From: Escherichia phage vB_EcoP-101136BS1
Length of the DNA stretch: 39,375 nucleotides
Sequence record: MZ234024.1
Reading direction: 5' to 3' (one strand)
Program-made: the position numbers and the translations under genes
The notes under the pieces: model-generated
The model's input: only the letters and a program-made list of their open reading frames with translations
What the model was told of the DNA's origin: nothing
Databases searched by the model: none
In this document: positions 1 to 39,375 of the stretch, piece by piece
How positions within the stretch are numbered: position 1 is the stretch's first letter
Layout: each line of letters begins with the position of its first letter

Positions 1-3000
1 ATGCAGGAACGAGAGGATCGCTCTACGTGGTTCGGTTTCGGCTCGGCTACAGAAGCTGAAGTGAAGAACTCTATGGTCGGCGTGGCTATCCGCGCTGGTC
101 AGACCGAGGACTCACTGGATGTCATTGGCGATGTGTTCAACCCAACCCGATGGAATAACCATAAGTGGTCTCGTGAGGAGCTGGACCAGATTCGTAACGC
201 TGGGGTTCTGCCTCAGTATTACGGAGTCATCACTGGTGGTTCCCCTCAGAACCTGACTGAGCTGATTAACTTGGCGCTTGAGAACCAGAAGTTGGACCAA
301 GAGAAGGCCAAGGCCGGGACTGGTGCTCAACTGGCGGCTGGTGTGATTGGTGCTGGCGTGGACCCTCTGACCTACGTTCCTATTGCTGGGCAGGTAGGTA
401 AAGGTGGGAAGCTAGTCAACAAGATGTTCACTGTGGCTGCTCAGTCTGGTGCTCTGGCTGGGGCATCCGAGATTGCTCGAACCTCAGTTGCTGGTGGGGA
501 CGCTCATGTGGCTGAGGCAATTATGGGCGGTGCTCTCTTCGGTGGGGGAATGACAGCTATCGGGGACGCTATCGGCAAGGCCTTAGGCAAGTCAACCAAC
601 GAGTTCGCCGGACCAGCCACACGTCTGGAAGCCCGTGAGACTGCACGTAATGTTGATGGTCAGGACCTGTCGCGTATGCCAATCCGTGAAGGAGAGGAGA
701 CCTTTAGTCATCAAGGTGTTAAGTTCGCAGACGTTCCGAACGAGCCGGGTAGTGTACGACTGGAAGATGGTTCAATCCTGATTGGTGAGAATCCTCTGAA
801 CCCTAAGACACGTAAAGTCTTTGACGAAGTGATTGAGCCTGAACGTGCCGCTGCTGGTGTGAACCTTGGTGGGCTGACTGAGATTGGCCTGAAGCTGCTT
901 CGGTCCGAGAACCCTGAGATTCGTGGAGTAGCTGCTGACTTAGTACGTTCACCGACTGGTATGCAGTCTGGGGCCTCAGGTAAAATAGGGACAACTGCGT
1001 CAGACGTATTCGAGAGACTTCGTGCTGTGGACCATCGGTTCTACAATGACATCGACGATGCGGTTACTGAGGCACTAAAGGACCCGTACTTCCAGACAGC
1101 ATTCTGGCGAGACTCTGGCGCATTCCGTCAAGACATCTATCAGCGCGTGTCTATGGCTATCGAAGATGGTAGCGGAAACCTGAAGGCTGAATTGACTCCG
1201 GGAGAACTGAAAGTCTATGACCTGCTGAAGAACCAGTTTGACGCCAAGCGTGAGATGATGGAGAACCCGGCGATGTTTGGTCGCCCAGACGCTCAGTCTA
1301 TCTTTCCGGGTAGCCGCTTCAAGGGAACATACGTCCCGCATGTGTATAGCAACCAGATGAAGGAGCTGTACATCAAGGAGCTTGGGAGTCCAGAGGCACT
1401 ACAGGAGGCCATCAAGAAGTCATGGTTGACCAGCTATGCGTCTCGACCTGAAGTCAAGAAACGTGTGGACGAGGCACTCTTAGAGGCTGACCCTACGTTG
1501 ACTCCAGAAGGACTTGCGGCTGCGGTCGATAAGTACGCCAACGATAAGGCTTATGGTATCTCTCACACCGAGCAGTTCGAGCGTTCATCCGTAATGGAAG
1601 AGAACATCAATGGTCTGGTGGGTCTGGAGAACAACAGCTTCCTTGAGGCTCGTAACCTGTTCGATAGCGATATGTCAATCGTCCTACCTAACGGTCAGAC
1701 CTTCAGTGTCAACAACCTGCGTGAGTGGGACATGGACAAGATTGTCCCGGCCTACAACCGTCGAGTTAATGGCGATATTGCTATCATGGCTGGTACAGGC
1801 AAGACCACGAAGGACATGAAGGACTTGGTTGAGACCCTGATGAACAAGGCTGGGGATGACGGTAAGTTGAAAGGTGAAGTATCTACATTACGTGACACTT
1901 TGAAGATTCTAACTGGTCGTGCTCGACGTGATGGTGCTGATGATGCGGCCTTCGCTACCGTGATGCGCACAATGACAGACCTATCGTTCTTCGCTAAGAA
2001 TGCCTACATGGGTGTTCAGAACTTAACGGAGATTGGTGGTATGCTGGCTCGTGGTAACGTTCGTGCAATGCTTCATGGAGTCCCAATTTTCCGTGACCTA
2101 GCCTTCCGTAACAAGAAGGTTGGGGCCTCAGAGATTAAGGACCTGCACAATGTTATCTTCGGTAAGGAACTGGATGACTCAATCCGTCCGTCTAAACAGG
2201 ATGTCATTGACCGTCTGCGATCTTACAGTGACCTCGGTCGTGGTACAGCTACAGCTCTGGGGACTGCCAAGTATTACACTGGCGAACTTGCAGTACGCTC
2301 TCCGTTCACTAAAGTCCTCAACGGTACGACCAACTACCTGTTAGATGCTGGACGTCAGGGCTTCCTGTCTGACATCGTGGAGCATAGCCTGACTGGTAGT
2401 AAGCGTAAGTTCGATGACCGCTGGCTGAAGACCGCTGGTATCTCTGACGAGCAGTGGAAGGGCATTAAGTCCCTAATCCGTGAGTCAGTGACTCGTGGTC
2501 CAGACGGGAAGTACACCATCAAGGATAAGAAGGCGTTCAGTCAGGACCCAAGGGCTATGGACCTCTGGCGTATGGGTGACACCATCGCTGATGAGACCCT
2601 GCTACGTCCCCACAAGCTGAGCAACATGGACGCCAAGGCTTATGGTCCGATAGCGAAGACTGTCTTGCAGTTTAAGAACTTCGTTATCAAGTCTATCAAC
2701 GGTCGAACCATGCGTACCTTCTACAATGCCACCAAGAACAACCGAGCTATGGACGCTGCGCTGTCAACGGTTATGTCTATGGGTCTGGCTGGAATGTACT
2801 ACATGGCTCAGGCGCACATAAAGGCTTACGCTATGCAGGACGGTCGTGACCGAGAGTATCTGAAGCAAGCCCTTAACCCAACAATGATTGGCTATGCGGC
2901 GCTGTCCCGTAGCTCCCACTTAGGTGGTCCTCTTGGGGTCGCCAACATTCTGGGTGGAATCGCTGGGTATGAGGACACTAAGATGCTCCGCTCGTCAATC

Positions 3001-3303
3001 CTTCCGCGCTCACCTACCGAGAAGACGGAGAAGCCAATCGCCTTTGGTGCTGCTTCCAGTGGTCCGGTAATGAATGTGGTCGGCAACTTCCTTGAGCAGG
3101 TCCCGGCTTTCGGCTATGCTGCTAACGTTGGTGCTACGGCTTACAACTTGGCGGGATACCTCAAGGCGGATACCCGTGTCAACGAGCGAGACTACATGAC
3201 CGGGATGTATAACACGTTCCGTGAACTTGTACCGAATGACCCGATTACCCAGAAGTTGCTGCTTGGAACGTTTGAGGAGCAGGGCATCCACATCAAGGAC
3301 TAA
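1..3303 (+). CDS. gp16: internal virion protein D (gp16), C-terminal 1100 codons; the 5' part of the same gene is at 38791..39375
   Basis: ORF is open from base 1 with no start. Translation shares long conserved blocks with T7 gp16 as recalled (LEARETARN, RSPTGMQSGASGK, RRVNGDIAIM, FFAKNAYMG, NGTTNYLLDA, DPRAMDLWR, ELVPNDP). Frame is continuous with the ORF running off the window end. Confidence 0.9.
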   Translation: MQEREDRSTWFGFGSATEAEVKNSMVGVAIRAGQTEDSLDVIGDVFNPTRWNNHKWSREELDQIRNAGVLPQYYGVITGGSPQNLTELINLALENQKLDQEKAKAGTGAQLAAGVIGAGVDPLTYVPIAGQVGKGGKLVNKMFTVAAQSGALAGASEIARTSVAGGDAHVAEAIMGGALFGGGMTAIGDAIGKALGKSTNEFAGPATRLEARETARNVDGQDLSRMPIREGEETFSHQGVKFADVPNEPGSVRLEDGSILIGENPLNPKTRKVFDEVIEPERAAAGVNLGGLTEIGLKLLRSENPEIRGVAADLVRSPTGMQSGASGKIGTTASDVFERLRAVDHRFYNDIDDAVTEALKDPYFQTAFWRDSGAFRQDIYQRVSMAIEDGSGNLKAELTPGELKVYDLLKNQFDAKREMMENPAMFGRPDAQSIFPGSRFKGTYVPHVYSNQMKELYIKELGSPEALQEAIKKSWLTSYASRPEVKKRVDEALLEADPTLTPEGLAAAVDKYANDKAYGISHTEQFERSSVMEENINGLVGLENNSFLEARNLFDSDMSIVLPNGQTFSVNNLREWDMDKIVPAYNRRVNGDIAIMAGTGKTTKDMKDLVETLMNKAGDDGKLKGEVSTLRDTLKILTGRARRDGADDAAFATVMRTMTDLSFFAKNAYMGVQNLTEIGGMLARGNVRAMLHGVPIFRDLAFRNKKVGASEIKDLHNVIFGKELDDSIRPSKQDVIDRLRSYSDLGRGTATALGTAKYYTGELAVRSPFTKVLNGTTNYLLDAGRQGFLSDIVEHSLTGSKRKFDDRWLKTAGISDEQWKGIKSLIRESVTRGPDGKYTIKDKKAFSQDPRAMDLWRMGDTIADETLLRPHKLSNMDAKAYGPIAKTVLQFKNFVIKSINGRTMRTFYNATKNNRAMDAALSTVMSMGLAGMYYMAQAHIKAYAMQDGRDREYLKQALNPTMIGYAALSRSSHLGGPLGVANILGGIAGYEDTKMLRSSILPRSPTEKTEKPIAFGAASSGPVMNVVGNFLEQVPAFGYAANVGATAYNLAGYLKADTRVNERDYMTGMYNTFRELVPNDPITQKLLLGTFEEQGIHIKD

Positions 3304-3321
3304 ACTATCACTATAGGAAAC
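3299..3321 (+). promoter_or_regulatory. phage RNAP promoter (phi17 position), CTAAACTATCACTATAGGAAAC
   Basis: One of 11 copies of the same ~20-nt motif with a TATAGG initiation region, placed just upstream of the tailspike gene as phi17 is in T7. Confidence 0.8.
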
Positions 3322-3367
3322 TGGAGGCGCTACCATAGGTCTCCGTTTAAATCACAAAGGAGGCATA

Positions 3368-5548
3368 ATGTCCACGATTACACAATTCCCTTCAGGAAAC
3401 ACTCAGTACAGGATAGAGTTCGACTACCTAGCCAGAACGTTTGTTGTTGTTACGCTGGTGAATAGCTCTAACCCTACCCTGAACCGTGTACTGGAAGTTG
3501 GTCGAGATTACCGATTCCTTAATCCAACGATGATTGAGATGTTGGCTGACCAATCAGGTTTCGACATCGTTCGTATTCACCGTCAGACTGGAACTGACTT
3601 AGTGGTAGACTTCAGGAATGGCTCAGTGTTGACAGCTAGTGACCTGACCAATTCAGAGCTTCAGGCTATCCATATTGCAGAAGAAGGTCGAGACCAAACG
3701 GTTGACTTAGCTAAGGAATATGCCGATGCTGCTGGTAGCTCTGCTGGCAACGCTAAGGATAGCGAGGACGAAGCACGCCGAATCGCTGCGAGTATCAAGG
3801 CAGCTGGTAAAATTGGCTATATTACCCGTCGCTCCTTCGAGAAAGGCTTCAACGTTACAACATGGAACGAGGTCCTGCTATGGGAAGAGGATGGTGATTA
3901 TTACCGCTGGGATGGTACGCTTCCAAAGAACGTTCCCGCTGGTTCAACTCCTGAATCATCTGGTGGTATTGGGCTGAGTGCGTGGGTTAGTGTTGGTGAT
4001 GCGTCACTTAGAGCAAACCTGGCTGATAGTGATGGCGCTAAATACATAGGCAGTGGAGAAAGGACATTACTTGAGCACAACAATGATGTTTTGCACTCAA
4101 AAGACTTTCCAACACTGCAGGCAGCTATAGATGCATCTTTGCAAAAAAATGATCTACTGGTGTCTCCTGGCAATTATACTGAAAAAGTTACTATTGGAAA
4201 CGCGCAGTTAAAAGGTGTTGGCGGGGCCACGGTACTAAAAACTCCGGCAGACTTTACAAACACTGTTCAGGTTAATTTAGCTACACCTCATTGGCAATTC
4301 CGCCATAGTGGTGGTTTTGCTATAGATGGTTCCGGGACAACCGGGGCCGTAGGTATTAGTTTTGACCCGTCAGACCAATATTCCGGACGTCATAATTTTA
4401 GTGATGTATACATCCACAACATCAACAAGGCCATTCAGAAGCCTTCCGGGAACATCGGCAATACTTGGAGAAATATTGGGATATCTACGTGTGATTGGGG
4501 GTATTACGCGATTAGTGGCTCAGAGATGCATTGCGGGGCCGATACCCTCTACAATATCCACTTCGATGGCATCTCCACCTATGCAGTCTATCTAGACGGC
4601 ACTGTCGATAATGGCGGGGGGGGCGCATGGTGGCTTAAAGACTCCATTATTGAGGCTTCCGGAGGTGGCGGGATATACTTAAAAAGTAAATCGGGCGACT
4701 GTCCTACATCTCCATGCGGGGTATCCAATATATGGATGGAAGCGATCGCAACATCACCGGCTGTTCAGGTAGACGGCGTGGCGCAAAAACCGCGAGTTCT
4801 CAAGTTGGTAGACACAGCGATATTCTTTGCTGAGTATTCTTATCTCAACAACATCGAGCTATCCAACTCCAACTTAGTAACTTATGGTTGCCGTTTTGAC
4901 AACGCTGATGGCAATCAGGATATTGTCGTGGATGCACAAAGTACCATTGTAGCCCATGACGTGTATTTAAACGGCAGTTCTGGAAAGGACGTTATTGTGG
5001 AGTCCGTAGCATCGCAATCTGCAACGATAGCTGCCACAAACTTATCTCTGAGGGGCAACTTAACAAGAGGGAGAGTATTTAATACGCCGACAGGGAATAA
5101 ATTAATGGCTATCACATTTGACTCAGGTAGCCATAATTTTTCTGGCAGCGGCACCGTTAACGGTTCGACTGTATCTGACGGACTTCACGCCGCTACATGT
5201 ACCGAATTTTCATTCCCCGGAGCCGGTTTATATGAAATGATAGCGACAAGAACAACCATTACATCCGGTAGATGGTACGTGTGGGGAGTTAACTCACGCC
5301 TACAATCTGGCTCGGCGGATATTAGTATAACGTTAGGTATTACCATGGGTAGTGTTTACACAAAGCCGGGGGAGTGGATTAGCACTTTCGGTGTAGGAAA
5401 GGCATCTACCACTGGCACTGTAGCGCTATACGTTTCCACAGGAGGAGGTTCGGGAGCTACGGTCAGATTCAGTGACTTTTTCATCGCTGAGTTTACGACG
5501 CAAGCTCAGGCTTTAGCTTTCGCCAATTCAAGGATGTCGTTATCATAA
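3368..5548 (+). CDS. gp17: tail fiber/tailspike (gp17) with T7-like N-terminal anchor and a long non-T7 C-terminal domain, possibly a beta-helix polysaccharide depolymerase
   Basis: Strong RBS AAAGGAGG upstream. N-terminal ~150 aa resemble the T7 gp17 adaptor region (EFDYLARTFVVVTL, LVDFRNGSVL). Remainder is Gly/Asn/Ser/Thr-rich with no T7 fiber similarity. Confidence 0.85.
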   Translation: MSTITQFPSGNTQYRIEFDYLARTFVVVTLVNSSNPTLNRVLEVGRDYRFLNPTMIEMLADQSGFDIVRIHRQTGTDLVVDFRNGSVLTASDLTNSELQAIHIAEEGRDQTVDLAKEYADAAGSSAGNAKDSEDEARRIAASIKAAGKIGYITRRSFEKGFNVTTWNEVLLWEEDGDYYRWDGTLPKNVPAGSTPESSGGIGLSAWVSVGDASLRANLADSDGAKYIGSGERTLLEHNNDVLHSKDFPTLQAAIDASLQKNDLLVSPGNYTEKVTIGNAQLKGVGGATVLKTPADFTNTVQVNLATPHWQFRHSGGFAIDGSGTTGAVGISFDPSDQYSGRHNFSDVYIHNINKAIQKPSGNIGNTWRNIGISTCDWGYYAISGSEMHCGADTLYNIHFDGISTYAVYLDGTVDNGGGGAWWLKDSIIEASGGGGIYLKSKSGDCPTSPCGVSNIWMEAIATSPAVQVDGVAQKPRVLKLVDTAIFFAEYSYLNNIELSNSNLVTYGCRFDNADGNQDIVVDAQSTIVAHDVYLNGSSGKDVIVESVASQSATIAATNLSLRGNLTRGRVFNTPTGNKLMAITFDSGSHNFSGSGTVNGSTVSDGLHAATCTEFSFPGAGLYEMIATRTTITSGRWYVWGVNSRLQSGSADISITLGITMGSVYTKPGEWISTFGVGKASTTGTVALYVSTGGGSGATVRFSDFFIAEFTTQAQALAFANSRMSLS

Positions 5549-5692
5549 AAACAACCTCAGCCGAATCGGGTTATTTATCATCAGAACGGTATTGAATCAT
5601 CGAAGGTTGTGGAGGTAGAGGCTAACTACACGTTGACCAACGTATGATAACAACTTTGGGTCACGGACGACCCGCTTTAAACTGGAGGTTTT

Positions 5693-5887
5693 ATGATTGA
5701 GTTAGACTTCAAGAATGAGGTCCTCAAAGCCTCGCCTATCGTCGGGACCGCTGCGGCTGATGGTGCCAGTCGGTTCTTCTTTGGGCTAACGCTCAACGAA
5801 TGGTTCTACGTCGCTGCTATCGCGTACACCGTGGTGCAGATTGGCGTCCTAATTTACAAGACGATTAAGAGCGGAGGTAAGACATGA
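5693..5887 (+). CDS. gp17.5: class II holin (gp17.5)
   Basis: 64 aa; near-identical block to T7 holin as recalled (FFGLTLNEWFYVAAIAYTVVQIG). Confidence 0.9.
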   Translation: MIELDFKNEVLKASPIVGTAAADGASRFFFGLTLNEWFYVAAIAYTVVQIGVLIYKTIKSGGKT

Positions 5888-6147
5888 CGCAGATGGACTT
5901 AGAGAAGTTCCTGTTAATGCTGGACACAGAACGTGCTAGACTAATGCTGCAAGACCTGCGGGATGACTCTAAGCGTTCGCCCCAGCTCTACAACGCCATT
6001 GAGAAGCTACTGGCTCGTCACAACTTCGTGCTAAGCAAGGTGTCTGTTGACGAGAAGACGCTCGCTGATATGGAGGCCCTGAACGCAGAGTACGATAAGG
6101 TGCTCTCCGCTACGGAAGATAATGACACTGGGTATGGAGTGCAGTAA
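5884..6147 (+). CDS. gp18: terminase small subunit (gp18)
   Basis: 87 aa; shares LMLDT and RSPQLYNAI with T7 gp18; start overlaps the holin stop. Confidence 0.85.
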   Translation: MTQMDLEKFLLMLDTERARLMLQDLRDDSKRSPQLYNAIEKLLARHNFVLSKVSVDEKTLADMEALNAEYDKVLSATEDNDTGYGVQ

Positions 6148-6160
6148 ATCTCTTAAGTGT

Positions 6161-6205
6161 TAGACTCAAGGTCATTACTGTGTGTAGTGGCCTTTATGGT
6201 TAACA
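6161..6205 (+). promoter_or_regulatory. conserved intergenic element GACTCAAGGTCAT...GTGGCCTTTATGGTTA, candidate RNase III site (T7 R18.5 position)
   Basis: Same motif recurs at 15320-15362 and 22385-22430, and in part at 11997-12012. AAGGTC and GGCCTT can pair with one G-U wobble. Confidence 0.45.
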
Positions 6206-6257
6206 CTAACTAGTGGAGGAGACTCTACGTGAAATCTGATAAACCGGGAGGGCAACT

Positions 6258-9084: not shown

Positions 9085-9126
9085 GACCTACGGTCCTTGA
9101 CCTACAGTGGCTGTGGCCTACAGTAG
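9085..9126. repeat. short direct repeats of (G)ACCTAC(A/G)GT, 3 copies
   Basis: GACCTACGGTC, GACCTACAGTG and GCCTACAGTAG within 42 nt; analogous to the CCTAAAG-type arrays at T7 genome ends. Confidence 0.5.
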
Positions 9127-9163
9127 TGACGATGAGTTTTGGACCAAAAGTTTGAGACCACAT

Positions 9164-9346
9164 CTCACACTTCAAGAACCTCAAGTCTCCCCATAGGCCC
9201 TCTTTAAGTCCAGACCAAAGGCCCTACCCCAGTCTATCATAAGGTTAGACCGATGGTCCAGACTTCAGGTCAACGATAGGTCTAGGCTATGGCTTAGGGA
9301 AGGACGATAGGTTGGGACTATGGGTCTTCTTTGAGTCTCTATCTGT
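9164..9346. repeat. candidate terminal-repeat region with the genome left end near TCTCACA (9164)
   Basis: TCTCACA followed ~29 nt later by CCCCATAGG, and ending near CTATCTGT, mirrors landmarks of the T7 160-bp terminal repeat as recalled. Boundaries cannot be fixed from a collapsed assembly. Confidence 0.3.
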
Positions 9347-9480
9347 ATAACCATAAGTCACAACCATAGGTCACAGCCTACCTCTCACAACCATAAGTCA
9401 TAACCTACAGTCTCACTAACCTACAGTCTCAACCATAAGACACCAACACCTACAGTCATAGACCTACAGTTAATAGACAC
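9335..9480. repeat. array of short direct repeats (ACCTACAGTC x4, ACCATAAG(T/A)C x3) in the left-end non-coding region
   Basis: Repeats read directly at 9403, 9417, 9447 and 9461, and 9351, 9379 and 9431. Confidence 0.6.
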
Positions 9481-9850: not shown

Positions 9851-9863
9851 GTGCGCCGATAGC

Positions 9864-9920
9864 GACTAACTACAGGGCCTTTGAGTCTACATCTGAAGGC
9901 CCTGACTGATAGTCACTAAC
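9864..9920 (+). repeat. repeated structured element, copy 1 (ACTAACTACAGG ... GGCCCTGACTGATAGTCACTAAC); candidate RNase III site
   Basis: Contains hairpin AGGGCC-N18-GGCCCT. The 22-nt core recurs at 10216-10237 and 10944-10965, each ~30-45 nt upstream of an early start codon. Confidence 0.5.
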
Positions 9921-9936
9921 TTAAAGGATGGACACT

Positions 9937-10182
9937 ATGAAACACTTAAGCACAATCACTAATCGCAATGAAGTATTCGTGAACACTAAAGGTTATGCGT
10001 GGATTCAGCTTAAAGAGATGACAGGAGCGCGTCACCGTGTGGTAGTGCGCAAGGTATCAAGCAAGCAGTTCAGCAACTACAGCGTCGATACTGTGCGTAT
10101 AGACAACGAGACATACCTGATAGACTCGCAGATAACCGTGAGTCCTACAGTGGGCGTCTCAGCTCCTTATTTCGCTAACTGA
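9937..10182 (+). CDS. hypothetical early protein, 81 aa (first cistron after the host promoters)
   Basis: ORF-track frame 9928..10182; the second ATG at 9937 has better RBS spacing (AAAGGA, 8 nt). No similarity recognised. Confidence 0.55.
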   Translation: MKHLSTITNRNEVFVNTKGYAWIQLKEMTGARHRVVVRKVSSKQFSNYSVDTVRIDNETYLIDSQITVSPTVGVSAPYFAN

Positions 10183-10184
10183 GA

Positions 10185-10240
10185 GTGATTAACTACAGGT
10201 CGTTAGACTGATAGCGGCCTGACTGATAGTCACTAACACA
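10185..10240 (+). repeat. repeated structured element, copy 2; candidate RNase III site
   Basis: TTAACTACAGG can pair with CCTG(ACUGA)UAGU as an 8-bp stem with a bulge; core GGCCTGACTGATAGTCACTAAC. Confidence 0.5.
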
Positions 10241-36503: not shown

Positions 36504-38786
36504 ATGGCTAGTAATATTGAATCAGCTCTGGCTAATCGGACTATGGGTCGTGGCAGAGCGCCTGGTAAAACTATCGCCGTCAACTATCAAGCAGCCAGCG
36601 TTCAGGCTCCAACTGGCGACTCCGGTCTGGCTCGTGCGTTAACCAACTTCGTTGAGTCTGGGACAGGATTGTACAAGCAGTTCAAGGACGATGAGAAGAC
36701 CAGAGCTGACGAGCGGTCTAACGAGATTATCCGTAAGCTGACACCACAGCAAAGACGTGAGGCTATCCAGAACGGCACATTGCTGTATCAGGATGACCCT
36801 TACGCTATGGAAGCACTTCGAGTCAAGACTGGTCGTAATGCTGCCTTTGCTGTAGACGACGAGATTAACGTTAAGATTCAGAACGGTGAGTTCCGTACAC
36901 GTCAGGACATGGAAGAGTATCGCCACCAGCGACTTCAGGACGCCGCTAAGTCCTATGCTGAAGAGGCGGGTATCAACCCTACCGACGAGTTCTTCCAGCG
37001 TGGATTCAACGATAACATCACAGACCGCAACATCGCCATCTATGGGTCTTTCAATAAGTATTTCAGCAAGCAGTCTGAAGAGACAGCAATGTTGAACACT
37101 CGTATTGAGATGAACTCATTCCTGAACGATGGGGACCTGATGCGTTCTCCTGAGTCTGGAAAGACCTTCATGGCCTACCTTCGGGATGGACTAACGACTG
37201 CTGCTATCCCTTCGGACCAGCGAGCACGAGAGGTCATTACCCAGACGGTCCGTGACGCAATCCAGAAGTCAGGTGGCTCAAACTTCCTACAGCAAGTACG
37301 AGGCGAGCGAATCACCCTTAACGGTGTGGATGCTACAGTCGAAGAGATTGTAGGACCAGATGTCTTCAACGCTGCTATTGTAGAGGCCCAAGGTACTGAG
37401 TACAAGCTGGTGGCTAAGTATCAGGAAGACTTGTCGTTAGGCGTTCAGTCTGCGATTCTTCAGGATGACCCAACCATCGGTCTGGCCCAGATTCAGAAAC
37501 TCAAGGAGCAGAACAACCTGCTTCAACCGGGTGAAGAACTCACGCCTCAGCGTCAGATGCTTATTAATGCCGAAGCCAGCTTACTGGAAGCGGTCAAGCG
37601 TAAGTCTGCTGAACAAGCGAAGGAGAACACTAAGTTAATCCAGACCCAGAACAAGCAACTGGTCATCGACCAAGTGTATCAGCGACGTCTGGCCGGTGAC
37701 AACGTATCCACCAACTATGAGGACCTTCCGGTCTCTGACGCTACAGGGGAGTTCAAGCGTTCAGACATGAACAACTATGCGTCTTCCAAGCTACAGCAGA
37801 TTGACCAGATGGACATCCCTGAGGCTGCTAAGGACGCTCAGAAGGTGGCATTGTTAAGAGCTGACACTAATAACGGTCCGTTCCGTAATGCCTTCCAGAC
37901 GCTGACTCAGGACGCTGCTGGTGAGTGGCAAGCTGCGGTCATCCGTGGGCAGTACGACCCAGACAAGATGCAACGCTTCGAGTCTCTTCGTCGTGCCTAC
38001 ACTCAGGACCCTTCAAGTTTTGCTGCTCTATATCCTGACCAAGCTCAGTTGTTCTCTACGTTCGACCAGATGGACAAGATGGGTCTGGACCCTCAGACGA
38101 TGATTGAGGCTGATAAGCAAGCTGCAAGTCAAAGCCGTGAGATGCGCATGGAGTCAGACAAGGCGTGGCAGGAGTTGAAGAACGACTCTCGGAATAAGGA
38201 CCTTTCGCGTCTTCCTACGTCTCTAGACTCAAGTGCTCGTAAGGTCTGGGACTCATGGTACTATCGTACAGGTAACGCTGATGCTGCAACTCAGCAGACT
38301 CAACGCTGGCTGAATGAGAACACCGTAACGTTCCAGTCTGAAGGTTCTGATGGTAAGTCCCTCGGCATGGTGTCCAAGCACCAGCTTATGGTCGGGGATA
38401 ACCCAGAGTCGTGGCAGGTGGGTCGAGACATTATCGACACAGCTCGTCAGCAGCTCATTAAGGCCAACCCTTGGGTAGTGAACTCTCAGTTGTCCGTTGT
38501 TGAACAGAACGGCTCTATCTTCCTCCAAGACGCTACGGGGACTATTCGTATTCGATACGATAAAGAACTTGTAGGTAAACTCTACCGCGAACAACAGCAG
38601 AAGGCACAAGATGCCGCATATGCTCAGGCAGAACGTGACGCTAACAAGCGAGCGCGTATCGTCGGGACTAAAGCTGCTGGTGACAAACGTCGAGCTGACC
38701 GAGAGGCCAACATCGAGAAGCGTGGTGGGATGTACAATGACGTCTCACTGGAGGGTATCGCAAACGTACTAATCGGTAAGGAGTAA
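36504..38786 (+). CDS. gp15: internal virion protein C (gp15)
   Basis: 760 aa (T7 gp15 is 747); position between gp14 and gp16; strong RBS GAGGAGG. Confidence 0.85.
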   Translation: MASNIESALANRTMGRGRAPGKTIAVNYQAASVQAPTGDSGLARALTNFVESGTGLYKQFKDDEKTRADERSNEIIRKLTPQQRREAIQNGTLLYQDDPYAMEALRVKTGRNAAFAVDDEINVKIQNGEFRTRQDMEEYRHQRLQDAAKSYAEEAGINPTDEFFQRGFNDNITDRNIAIYGSFNKYFSKQSEETAMLNTRIEMNSFLNDGDLMRSPESGKTFMAYLRDGLTTAAIPSDQRAREVITQTVRDAIQKSGGSNFLQQVRGERITLNGVDATVEEIVGPDVFNAAIVEAQGTEYKLVAKYQEDLSLGVQSAILQDDPTIGLAQIQKLKEQNNLLQPGEELTPQRQMLINAEASLLEAVKRKSAEQAKENTKLIQTQNKQLVIDQVYQRRLAGDNVSTNYEDLPVSDATGEFKRSDMNNYASSKLQQIDQMDIPEAAKDAQKVALLRADTNNGPFRNAFQTLTQDAAGEWQAAVIRGQYDPDKMQRFESLRRAYTQDPSSFAALYPDQAQLFSTFDQMDKMGLDPQTMIEADKQAASQSREMRMESDKAWQELKNDSRNKDLSRLPTSLDSSARKVWDSWYYRTGNADAATQQTQRWLNENTVTFQSEGSDGKSLGMVSKHQLMVGDNPESWQVGRDIIDTARQQLIKANPWVVNSQLSVVEQNGSIFLQDATGTIRIRYDKELVGKLYREQQQKAQDAAYAQAERDANKRARIVGTKAAGDKRRADREANIEKRGGMYNDVSLEGIANVLIGKE

Positions 38787-38790
38787 CATA

Positions 38791-39375
38791 ATGGCGACTC
38801 GTGGTATTCGCAATAACAATCCGGGTAACATCCGGGTAAGTAAGGACCAATGGGAAGGAATGACTGGAGATGATGGCGCATTCGTCACCTTCGATAGTCC
38901 AGAGTCTGGCGTCCGAGCTTTAGGTAAAAACCTGCTGTCCTACGGTCGCCAAGGTTATGATTCCATCGAGAAGATTATCAACAGATGGGCACCTCCTAAC
39001 GAGAACGACACTAAGGCTTATATTGACTCAGTGGTGGCTGCAACTGGTATTCCAGCTACACAGAGTCTCGACCTATCGGACCCTGACACCCTGTCTTCTC
39101 TGGCTCAAGCTATCAGCTTCCATGAGACAGGCTCCCGGTACGACCCTGAAGTCTATCAGAAGGGAGTCGCACGAGCACTCAATGGCATTAGCCCAAAGAC
39201 TCCACCAGTAAGCGCTAACGTATTTGACGCACTCACGGAAGGACTCAAGGCTAAACCTAAAGTAGCTCTTGGCGAGAACCTTCCGACCGCTGCTGGTCTA
39301 AACATTGAGGGTCAAGCACCTGAAGCTCCCAACGAATCGTTCGGTGAGATGTTCTATAAGTCTACTGGCGAGACC
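38791..39375 (+). CDS. gp16: internal virion protein D (gp16), N-terminal 195 codons, running off the window end and continuing in frame at 1..3303
   Basis: ATG at 38791 after RBS AAGGAG; no stop before the window end; 585 nt is exactly 195 codons, so base 1 starts a new codon. N-terminus (RNNNPGNIR...) does not resemble the T7 gp16 SLT domain. Confidence 0.8.
   Translation, partial: MATRGIRNNNPGNIRVSKDQWEGMTGDDGAFVTFDSPESGVRALGKNLLSYGRQGYDSIEKIINRWAPPNENDTKAYIDSVVAATGIPATQSLDLSDPDTLSSLAQAISFHETGSRYDPEVYQKGVARALNGISPKTPPVSANVFDALTEGLKAKPKVALGENLPTAAGLNIEGQAPEAPNESFGEMFYKSTGET

Follow-up and report, generated by a model that had tools for sequence, protein, structure and literature searches.

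Gene 17 of Escherichia phage vB_EcoP-101136BS1: a predicted tailspike that joins a T7-type anchor to an exchangeable beta-helix head

The stretch of DNA analysed here (hereafter, the window) comprises the 39,375 nucleotides (nt) of sequence record MZ234024.1 from Escherichia phage vB_EcoP-101136BS1, and our subject is its gene 17, which encodes a predicted tailspike, the receptor-binding protein of the virion. Judged by its sequence, the window holds the whole genome of a Kayfunavirus, one of the K1F-like relatives of T7, with 97.4% identity to vB_EcoP-22664BS1 over 24 kb and about 96% to the genome of LM33_P1. Based on PHROG assignments, the gene order is gene 16 (1..3303), gene 17, holin, small terminase, Rz spanin and large terminase, and gene 17 occupies the gene-17 position of a T7-like late operon. 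PHROG 27367, named 'tail fiber protein', covers the gene 17 protein from end to end (1334 bits).

Gene 17 and the modules of its product

An earlier note, made from the letters of this DNA, had described gene 17 as a T7-type anchor of about 150 residues fused to a long receptor domain of another origin. The open reading frame (ORF) is real (Table 1), and so is the anchor. PF03906 matches residues 10-115 (E 3e-16; 59.9 bits against a curated cut-off of 25.2), and the solved T7 gp17 chains 7boz, 8dsp and 8e4g match residues 6-116 with E values of 1.7e-17 to 3e-16 (3e-16 for 7boz_a), which places the protein in the T7 gp17-type N-terminal adaptor family. Likeness to T7 gp17 is confined to the N-terminus, as had been claimed. 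The boundary at about residue 150 did not stand, nor did the view that everything from residue 151 onwards is a variable receptor domain: residues 151-211 form a conserved Tail_spike_N domain, which had been overlooked. Its assignment to family PF18668 comes from a match at E 1.5e-19 and 70.3 bits (curated cut-off 25), and the CBA120 TSP4, TSP1 and TSP3 chains (5w6h, 4oj5 and 5w6f) match over residues 145-229. The protein is therefore built of four modules, not two, namely anchor with neck, Tail_spike_N, beta-helix and beta-sandwich.

This N-terminal part is a property of the genus. Nucleotides 1 to about 645 of the gene are 96-98% identical in many Kayfunaviruses, and coliphage K1F gp17 endosialidase and other Kayfunavirus spikes (IMEP24 and the split receptor-binding protein of CLB_P1) share the same genus-level anchor, whereas their heads are unrelated or distant, that of IMEP24 being only 39% identical. 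One Kayfunavirus record, vB_EcoP_F, names a beta-propeller endosialidase domain in the feature that underlies the anchor match. The solved tailspike 9vvr_A (843 residues) is nearly identical over residues 1-225, where the similarity ends. The 9vvr entry contains 18 chains with a single sequence, a number that agrees with six trimers per tail, and a homologue, 9lna, was solved as three chains.

The switch from conserved to variable sequence can be placed precisely. In 60-nt intervals, the gene matches Kayfunavirus IMEP24 with 97-100% identity as far as gene nt 600; the value drops to 72% over nt 601-660 and lies at 33-65% from there on. For Kagunavirus Golestan, no interval through nt 660 exceeds 43%, nt 661-780 reach 72% and the remainder lies at 67-98%. 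Megablast breakpoints fall at gene nt 643-647 and 677, marking a sharp junction at about nt 645-677. The identity switch and the breakpoints together therefore set the exchange point at residues ~215-226, downstream of Tail_spike_N. The receptor-binding part (4043-5548) has a GC content of 46.4%, within the lowest 4% of segments of the same size in the window, and the GC content at third codon positions (GC3) of gene 17 is about 44%, compared with 50-63% in eight other large ORFs. Both values are consistent with a horizontally exchanged cassette.

The earlier note had also pointed to a Gly/Asn/Ser/Thr-rich composition and to repeated short beta-strand-like segments. Glycine, asparagine, serine and threonine make up 37.5% of residues 151-726, compared with a mean of 23.9% (standard deviation 2.8) in 13 other ORFs of at least 200 residues (z = 4.9), so the first observation holds. 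The second holds in part. Short strands are predicted in residues 226-726 (see below), but no 5-mer occurs twice in the protein, and the apparent periodicity is therefore one of structure, in rungs, and not of repeated sequence.

Table 1. Features of gene 17 and its surroundings (all coordinates refer to the window; aa, residues of the gene 17 protein)
Feature	Residues	Position	Strand	Basis or remark
Gene 17, tailspike / receptor-binding protein	726 aa + stop	3368..5548	+	ATG start, TAA stop; ORF list
T7 gp17-type anchor and charged, helix-like neck (aa ~104-150)	1-150	3368..3817	+	PF03906, 7boz_a, 9vvr_A
Tail_spike_N domain (TSP1/Gp66-type N-terminal domain)	151-211	3818..4000	+	PF18668
Module exchange point, ...RANLADSDGAKYIG...	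~215-226	4010..4047	+	60-nt identities, megablast breakpoints
Capping helix and right-handed parallel beta-helix, presumed enzymatic receptor-binding domain	~250-565	4115..5062	+	boundaries approximate
C-terminal beta-sandwich, CBM-like fold, ending in a conserved helix (aa ~712-721)	~577-726	5096..5545	+	boundaries approximate
E429 codon, motif IIEA, candidate catalytic carboxylate	429	4652..4654	+	93% conserved; codon verified
E458 codon, motif WMEA, candidate catalytic carboxylate	458	4739..4741	+	100% conserved, also invariant in alignment A1; codon verified
Phage RNA-polymerase promoter-like motif AACTATCACTATAGGAAAC		3303..3321	+	first base is the last base of the gene 16 stop; ends 47 nt before the gene 17 ATG
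Motif copies A[A/G]CTATCACT[A/G]TAGG...		3303, 8566, 11982, 15303, 17169, 18044, 26404, 29243, 30225, 35008	+	
Shine-Dalgarno AAGGAGG		3357..3363	+	4 nt before the gene 17 ATG; read from sequence

Fold and distribution of the head

Residues 226-726, the head, were modelled as a single chain with AlphaFold2 from an alignment of 38 sequences (A1). The model, with a predicted local distance difference test score (pLDDT) of 91.9 and a predicted template-modelling score (pTM) of 0.87, consists mostly of short beta-strands. Foldseek returned the K2-2 TSP, KP32gp38, CBA120 TSP4 and TSP2, Sf6 and P22 tailspikes at probability 1.0, and the central domain is accordingly modelled as a right-handed parallel beta-helix of the pectin-lyase fold tailspike class, the fold that the earlier note had expected; the outcome of no beta-helix is clearly not what was obtained. 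Long strands at model residues 352-484, followed by a helix at 487-496, make up a C-terminal sandwich. Separate Foldseek matches to the carbohydrate-binding modules (CBMs) CBM22 (4xuo) and CBM16 (2zey) and to a porphyran CBM (8xmz), with target-normalised template-modelling (TM) scores of 0.52-0.61, were assigned to this sandwich on the basis of the secondary structure of the model. Predicted viral structures from ES17, PD38 and pYD6-A superimpose on the head model with TM scores of 0.91-0.95.

The likeness to characterised tailspikes is one of fold. The top Foldseek matches, the Klebsiella capsule depolymerases K2-2 TSP (8iq9; E 1.4e-8) and KP32gp38 (9qrm; E 1.5e-8), show 10-12% identity and global TM scores of 0.3-0.4 and so have only the fold class in common with the head; their substrates are acidic capsules, in contrast to the neutral O-antigen proposed below. 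The P22, Sf6 and HK620 tailspikes, which are O-antigen endoglycosidases, and CBA120 TSP2 and TSP4 show 9-15% identity, none was found by sequence over the head, and their C-terminal domains differ from the CBM-like sandwich of gene 17. A profile search of alignment A1 against solved structures gave no informative match to the head; it was dominated by heterogeneous N-terminal overhangs (P22/Sf6 head-binding and Tail_spike_N), apart from a weak match to the pectinesterase 8tne_A (E 0.086).

The nearest relative of gene 17 is the gp17 gene of LM33_P1, annotated as a tail fibre (SBT28132.1 / YP_009324518.1), with 99.8% nucleotide identity over 2181 nt. Four nucleotides and three residues differ (A136S, I625V and L656S, with the residue of the window first), and two of the three substitutions, I625V and L656S, sit in the C-terminal beta-sandwich. 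The 300-nt flanks in LM33_P1 are 99.7% and 100% identical to the window and the genomic position is equal; by sequence and placement, this is the same gene. According to the title of its publication, LM33_P1 is a therapeutic phage against ST131-O25b:H4.

Beyond LM33_P1, the head occurs in phages of very different build. Tblastn recovered Kayfunavirus heads that are 96-99.6% identical (LM33_P1, 22664BS1, 101118UKE1, HC12/13, 6925, LNA5, Emlis and SHAK9454), Kagunavirus siphophage heads at 90-92% (Golestan, phiEc3/4, 22664BS2, fEg-Eco06, K-02, BEU33/35 and SCS44), the head of the siphophage fFiEco03 at 65%, Kuravirus heads at 64% (ES17 and myPSH1131/2311), other siphophage heads at 40-46% (AN_ECEAS, ES and XT34), N4-like phage heads at 41% (Bp4 and PD38), that of Kayfunavirus IMEP24 at 39% and that of Pseudoalteromonas phage pYD6-A at 31%. 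In metagenome-derived proteins the head is joined to a P22 head-binding domain (with identities of 82-83% for P0017-P0027 and less for others). In a P22-like prophage, found in a sequencing-run assembly that carries no serotype information, the head copy is the last gene and adjoins an integrase and enterobacterial chromosomal genes. The head is thus found on T7-type, Tail_spike_N-only, P22 head-binding, Kuravirus and N4-like N-termini. Among the 38 aligned members, Pfam recognised Tail_spike_N in 11 and Head_binding in seven, and in none did a match cover the head. At a threshold of E <= 1e-3, an exhaustive phmmer search yielded 300 cluster representatives, of which 74 also passed E <= 1e-30. 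Among the 150 matches listed, most span query residues ~20-500, which indicates that beta-helix and sandwich travel together. Head DNA was absent from 5,426 complete E. coli genomes (blastn, distant mode), which leaves no prophage copy there to correlate with serotype, and a pattern scan of 185,579 species genomes gave no confirmed relative.

Two of these groups combine the head with a different N-terminus. The Kagunavirus tailspikes (VB_EcoS-Golestan ORF30, phiEc3/phiEc4 and 22664BS2; 661 residues) carry a head corresponding to residues 226-726 with 90-92% identity in protein and about 88% in DNA, but these phages have a long non-contractile tail, their anchor consists of Tail_spike_N only, with no T7 gp17 domain, and the N-terminal DNA identity is 0-43%. 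One of them, 22664BS2, has the same O25b isolation host as the podovirus 22664BS1, and the two host ranges are 43% and 42%. The tail fibre protein of Kuravirus ES17 (QPL11059.1, 1021 residues), a phage that targets ST131 strains, combines a head of 64% identity and a model TM score of 0.95 with an unrelated N-terminus of 500 residues, and it has been found experimentally to bind human heparan sulfate proteoglycans.

Two database records deserve comment. MZ417522.1, 'UNVERIFIED: Mycolicibacterium phage J1', is a 25-kb entry labelled Microviridae with a tail-fibre gene at 3465-6215 and 71% head identity. Its genes are laid out as in Kuravirus ES17, and mislabelling of a coliphage fragment, or contamination by one, is almost certain. 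In OR594184.1 (vB_EcoM_SHAK9454), terminase and spanin names are annotated under the tailspike match, and the phage is called 'EcoM' though its 39-kb genome is Kayfunavirus-like, so that the annotation appears to be shifted or mislabelled.

Candidate active site, receptor and alternatives

Conservation was assessed over 161 full-coverage relatives, reduced to 117 non-redundant ones below 70% identity, with identities of 24-70%. Among polar residues, E458 is conserved in 100%, R341 in 95%, H388 and E429 in 93% each and N362 in 91%, followed by K358 and N365 (88% each), D522 (80%) and D392 (78%, or 84% counting D or E). In the sandwich, F709 and A715 are conserved in at least 91% and N720 in 85%. 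E429 and E458 are 29 residues apart. In two successive coils, the first long strand (model residues 197-206 and 225-235) carries one of them two residues short of its end, in the same register, and the motifs that hold them, IIEA and WMEA, correspond. The pair would stack on adjacent rungs and face solvent, and it can be likened to the Glu/Asp pairs of the P22, Sf6 and HK620 tailspikes. All the candidate residues are kept in Golestan and ES17. The conservation of E458, E429, H388, R341 and K358 suggests a glycosidase site, and a plausible catalytic constellation, the lack of which the earlier note had listed as a refutation, can thus be nominated, with its invariant and its nearly invariant glutamate one coil apart.

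The evidence on the receptor, which points to the O25(b) O-antigen, comes from hosts and host ranges. The strain on which vB_EcoP-101136BS1 (MZ234024) was isolated, DSM101136, is O25b-positive (Loose et al. 2021, PMC8614997), and the isolation hosts of three other head carriers, 22664BS1, 101118UKE1 and 22664BS2, were O25b-positive by polymerase chain reaction (PCR) in the same work (Loose et al. 2021, PMC8614997). These hosts of the phage and its closest relatives agree with the earlier claim of a receptor other than that of T7. On a panel of 79 urinary-tract strains, plaques were formed on 41% by 101118UKE1, 42% by 22664BS1, 44% by 101136BS1 and 43% by 22664BS2 (PMC8614997), nearly equal ranges for three podoviruses and one siphovirus. 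The other three Kayfunaviruses of that study, which are not among the 41 phage records that match the head, plaqued on 19, 34 and 61% (PMC8614997). The panel contains 37 O25:H4 and two O25:H1 strains, hence 39 O25 strains in 79, or 49% (PMC8614997). Since plaquing at 41-44% does not exceed this share, it fits an O25-restricted range, the figures being percentages and not per-strain counts. LM33_P1, in turn, is said to have been described by Dufour and colleagues in 2016 as strictly O25b-specific and as inhibited by O25b lipopolysaccharide (LPS); in a set of papers citing Dufour et al. 2016, no detail of receptor experiments with LM33_P1 was found.

The chemistry of the proposed substrate narrows the mechanism. 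The O25B repeat unit is a neutral pentasaccharide with a pair of glucose (Glc) and a pair of rhamnose (Rha) residues, one of the latter 2-O-acetylated, and one N-acetylglucosamine (GlcNAc) (PMC9516715). As it contains no uronic acid, a beta-elimination lyase is chemically excluded and hydrolysis is to be expected if O25b is the substrate.

Taken together, we consider it probable that the gene 17 product is a trimeric tailspike whose genus-conserved N-terminal ~215 residues dock on the tail and whose exchangeable head attaches to the O25(b) O-antigen and hydrolyses it in a groove with E429 and E458, opening a path to the outer membrane. The ORF and its place in the genome, the modules and their mosaic junction, the fold and the conservation of residues are results of this analysis; trimerisation, specificity for O25b, hydrolysis and the choice of catalytic residues are inferred. 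The protein would be the only tailspike of the virion, most likely with six homotrimers on each tail, and its T7 gp17-type anchor, neck and Tail_spike_N would together attach it. The cassette of residues ~226-726, presumably acquired by horizontal exchange and made up of the right-handed parallel beta-helix and then the CBM-like beta-sandwich, would recognise the neutral Glc/Rha/GlcNAc pentasaccharide repeat of the E. coli O25(b) O-antigen and would most likely cut it by hydrolysis in a groove that E429 and E458 line together with H388, D392, R341 and K358. By such cutting, a phage with a short tail could pass the LPS layer and reach the outer membrane. The earlier interpretation of a beta-helix tailspike aimed at a polysaccharide is supported.

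Several points weigh against this explanation. No Pfam model recognises the head and no solved structure matches it by sequence. The head was modelled as a monomer, and the geometry of the E429/E458 pair and its placement relative to subunit interfaces are putative. The plaquing percentages are consistent with O25 restriction, which they do not prove. No report of depolymerase activity of the gene 17 protein was present in the literature searched, outside which the original LM33_P1 paper lay, and the words 'halo' and 'depolymerase' are absent from the Golestan and Loose et al. papers. For ES17, with its 64% identical head, the authors detected heparan-sulfate binding only and no capsule-degrading activity (PMC7885116). 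Additionally, the record of vB_EcoP_LNA5 (MZ311861.1), with a head that is 98.6% identical, lists as host the rough K-12 strain MG1655, which has no O-antigen; either this host field is nominal or the phage infects rough strains, which bears on strict O25b dependence.

Some beta-helix adhesins bind without cleaving, and the head could likewise be lectin-like, binding the O25b O-antigen or another glycan reversibly and leaving it uncut. The lack of any activity report for the head and the ES17 relative, for which heparan-sulfate binding alone was detected (PMC7885116), would suit such a protein. We nevertheless regard it as rather improbable, because relatives that presumably bind different glycans all keep E458 and nearly all keep E429, H388 and R341, a pattern predicted by shared catalytic machinery and not by diverse binding sites. 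Moreover, most fold neighbours of the head are enzymes, and a short-tailed phage generally needs passage through a long O-antigen layer, as P22, Sf6 and HK620 do.

Cleavage of a different bond or a different glycan has also to be weighed. ES17 and modelling of the K5 lyase suggest that the head might instead depolymerise a capsule (K antigen) common in ST131, such as K5 heparosan, possibly as a lyase. This is hard to reconcile with isolation hosts defined by O25b PCR, with a host range that stays within the O25 share of 39 in 79, with a K5 lyase that ranks only 34th among generic beta-helix matches, and with the occurrence of the head on tailspikes of P22-like prophages, a group that classically targets the O-antigen (BASEL paper); we hold it to be quite unlikely. 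Pectinesterases of family CE8 are beta-helix enzymes as well. By analogous chemistry, the head could strip the 2-O-acetyl group from O25b rhamnose while the chain stays uncut, and the 2-O-acetyl-rhamnose of O25B (PMC9516715), the weak profile match to 8tne_A mentioned above and a 'putative pectinesterase' domain reported by Green et al. at E 7e-3 all point in that direction. The pectinesterase matches are weak and confined to the cap region, though, and the head holds no esterase-type residue constellation, which makes a carbohydrate esterase very improbable indeed. Hydrolysis of the O25(b) O-antigen by the head is the explanation that we retain.

Genomic setting and wider meaning

Gene 17 is preceded by a strong ribosome-binding site (Table 1) and, further upstream, by the AACTATCACTATAGGAAAC motif, which we read as a phage RNA-polymerase promoter from its resemblance to T7-type promoters. 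With at most three mismatches, ten copies of the motif occur in the window, all on the + strand, compared with none expected in 100 shuffles, and they are probably the phage's own set of late and middle promoters. Matches to sigma-70 promoters near gene 17 were at chance level and terminator-like matches near the gene were within chance. No intrinsic terminator was found 3' of the gene, where a 150-nt stretch over the stop codon and intergenic region folds no better than its shuffles (z = -0.55). Overlapping and antisense ORFs of 53-90 residues inside 3368-5548 were dismissed as frame noise, because the + frame is fully accounted for by the conserved protein.

Some observations concern the record as a whole. 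Gene 16 runs without a stop to the end of the window (38782-39375) and resumes in frame at position 1, continuing to 3303; its product is an internal virion protein with a lytic-transglycosylase-like N-terminal start, MATRGIRNNNPGNIR... Because the gene is open across the window ends, the record presents a linear T7-like genome in circularly permuted form, with the opening in gene 16. Short direct repeats (ACCTACAGT-type, TCACAACCATAGGTCA-type and an exact 20-nt pair) cluster at 9086-9470 and 9858-10237, in and just past the sole kilobase where GC skew is negative and GC is low (44.5%), right after the large terminase gene. They probably mark where the genome truly ends (the concatemer junction), and the early region.

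The architecture of gene 17 is confirmed and its interpretation supported, but both are already known from LM33_P1 and its relatives. Sharing of the head with Golestan (88% as reported by the authors) and with ES17 has been published, and a conserved anchor with an exchangeable glycan-specific head is a textbook principle in Kayfunaviruses. The present analysis nominates residues E429, E458, H388, D392, R341 and K358 and a precise swap point at residues ~215-226. More speculatively, the head may stand for a large family that has neither a solved structure nor a Pfam model, with at least 300 clusters at 50% identity, always composed of beta-helix and CBM-like sandwich; it could be a new glycoside-hydrolase family acting through Glu429, Glu458 and His388, and the LM33_P1-type spike might, like ES17, bind mammalian glycans of the heparan-sulfate type. 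We consider this extended proposal doubtful; if it were true, mammalian glycan binding would place an O25b-specific therapeutic phage on mucosal surfaces.

The protein that carries the head sets which E. coli the phage can kill, and the head is linked to O25b, the O-antigen type of ST131, a pandemic clone resistant to multiple drugs. These points are already covered by the literature on LM33_P1, Golestan and ES17. Having moved among at least five phage lineages, the head offers a ready cassette for the retargeting of therapeutic phages or for diagnostics.

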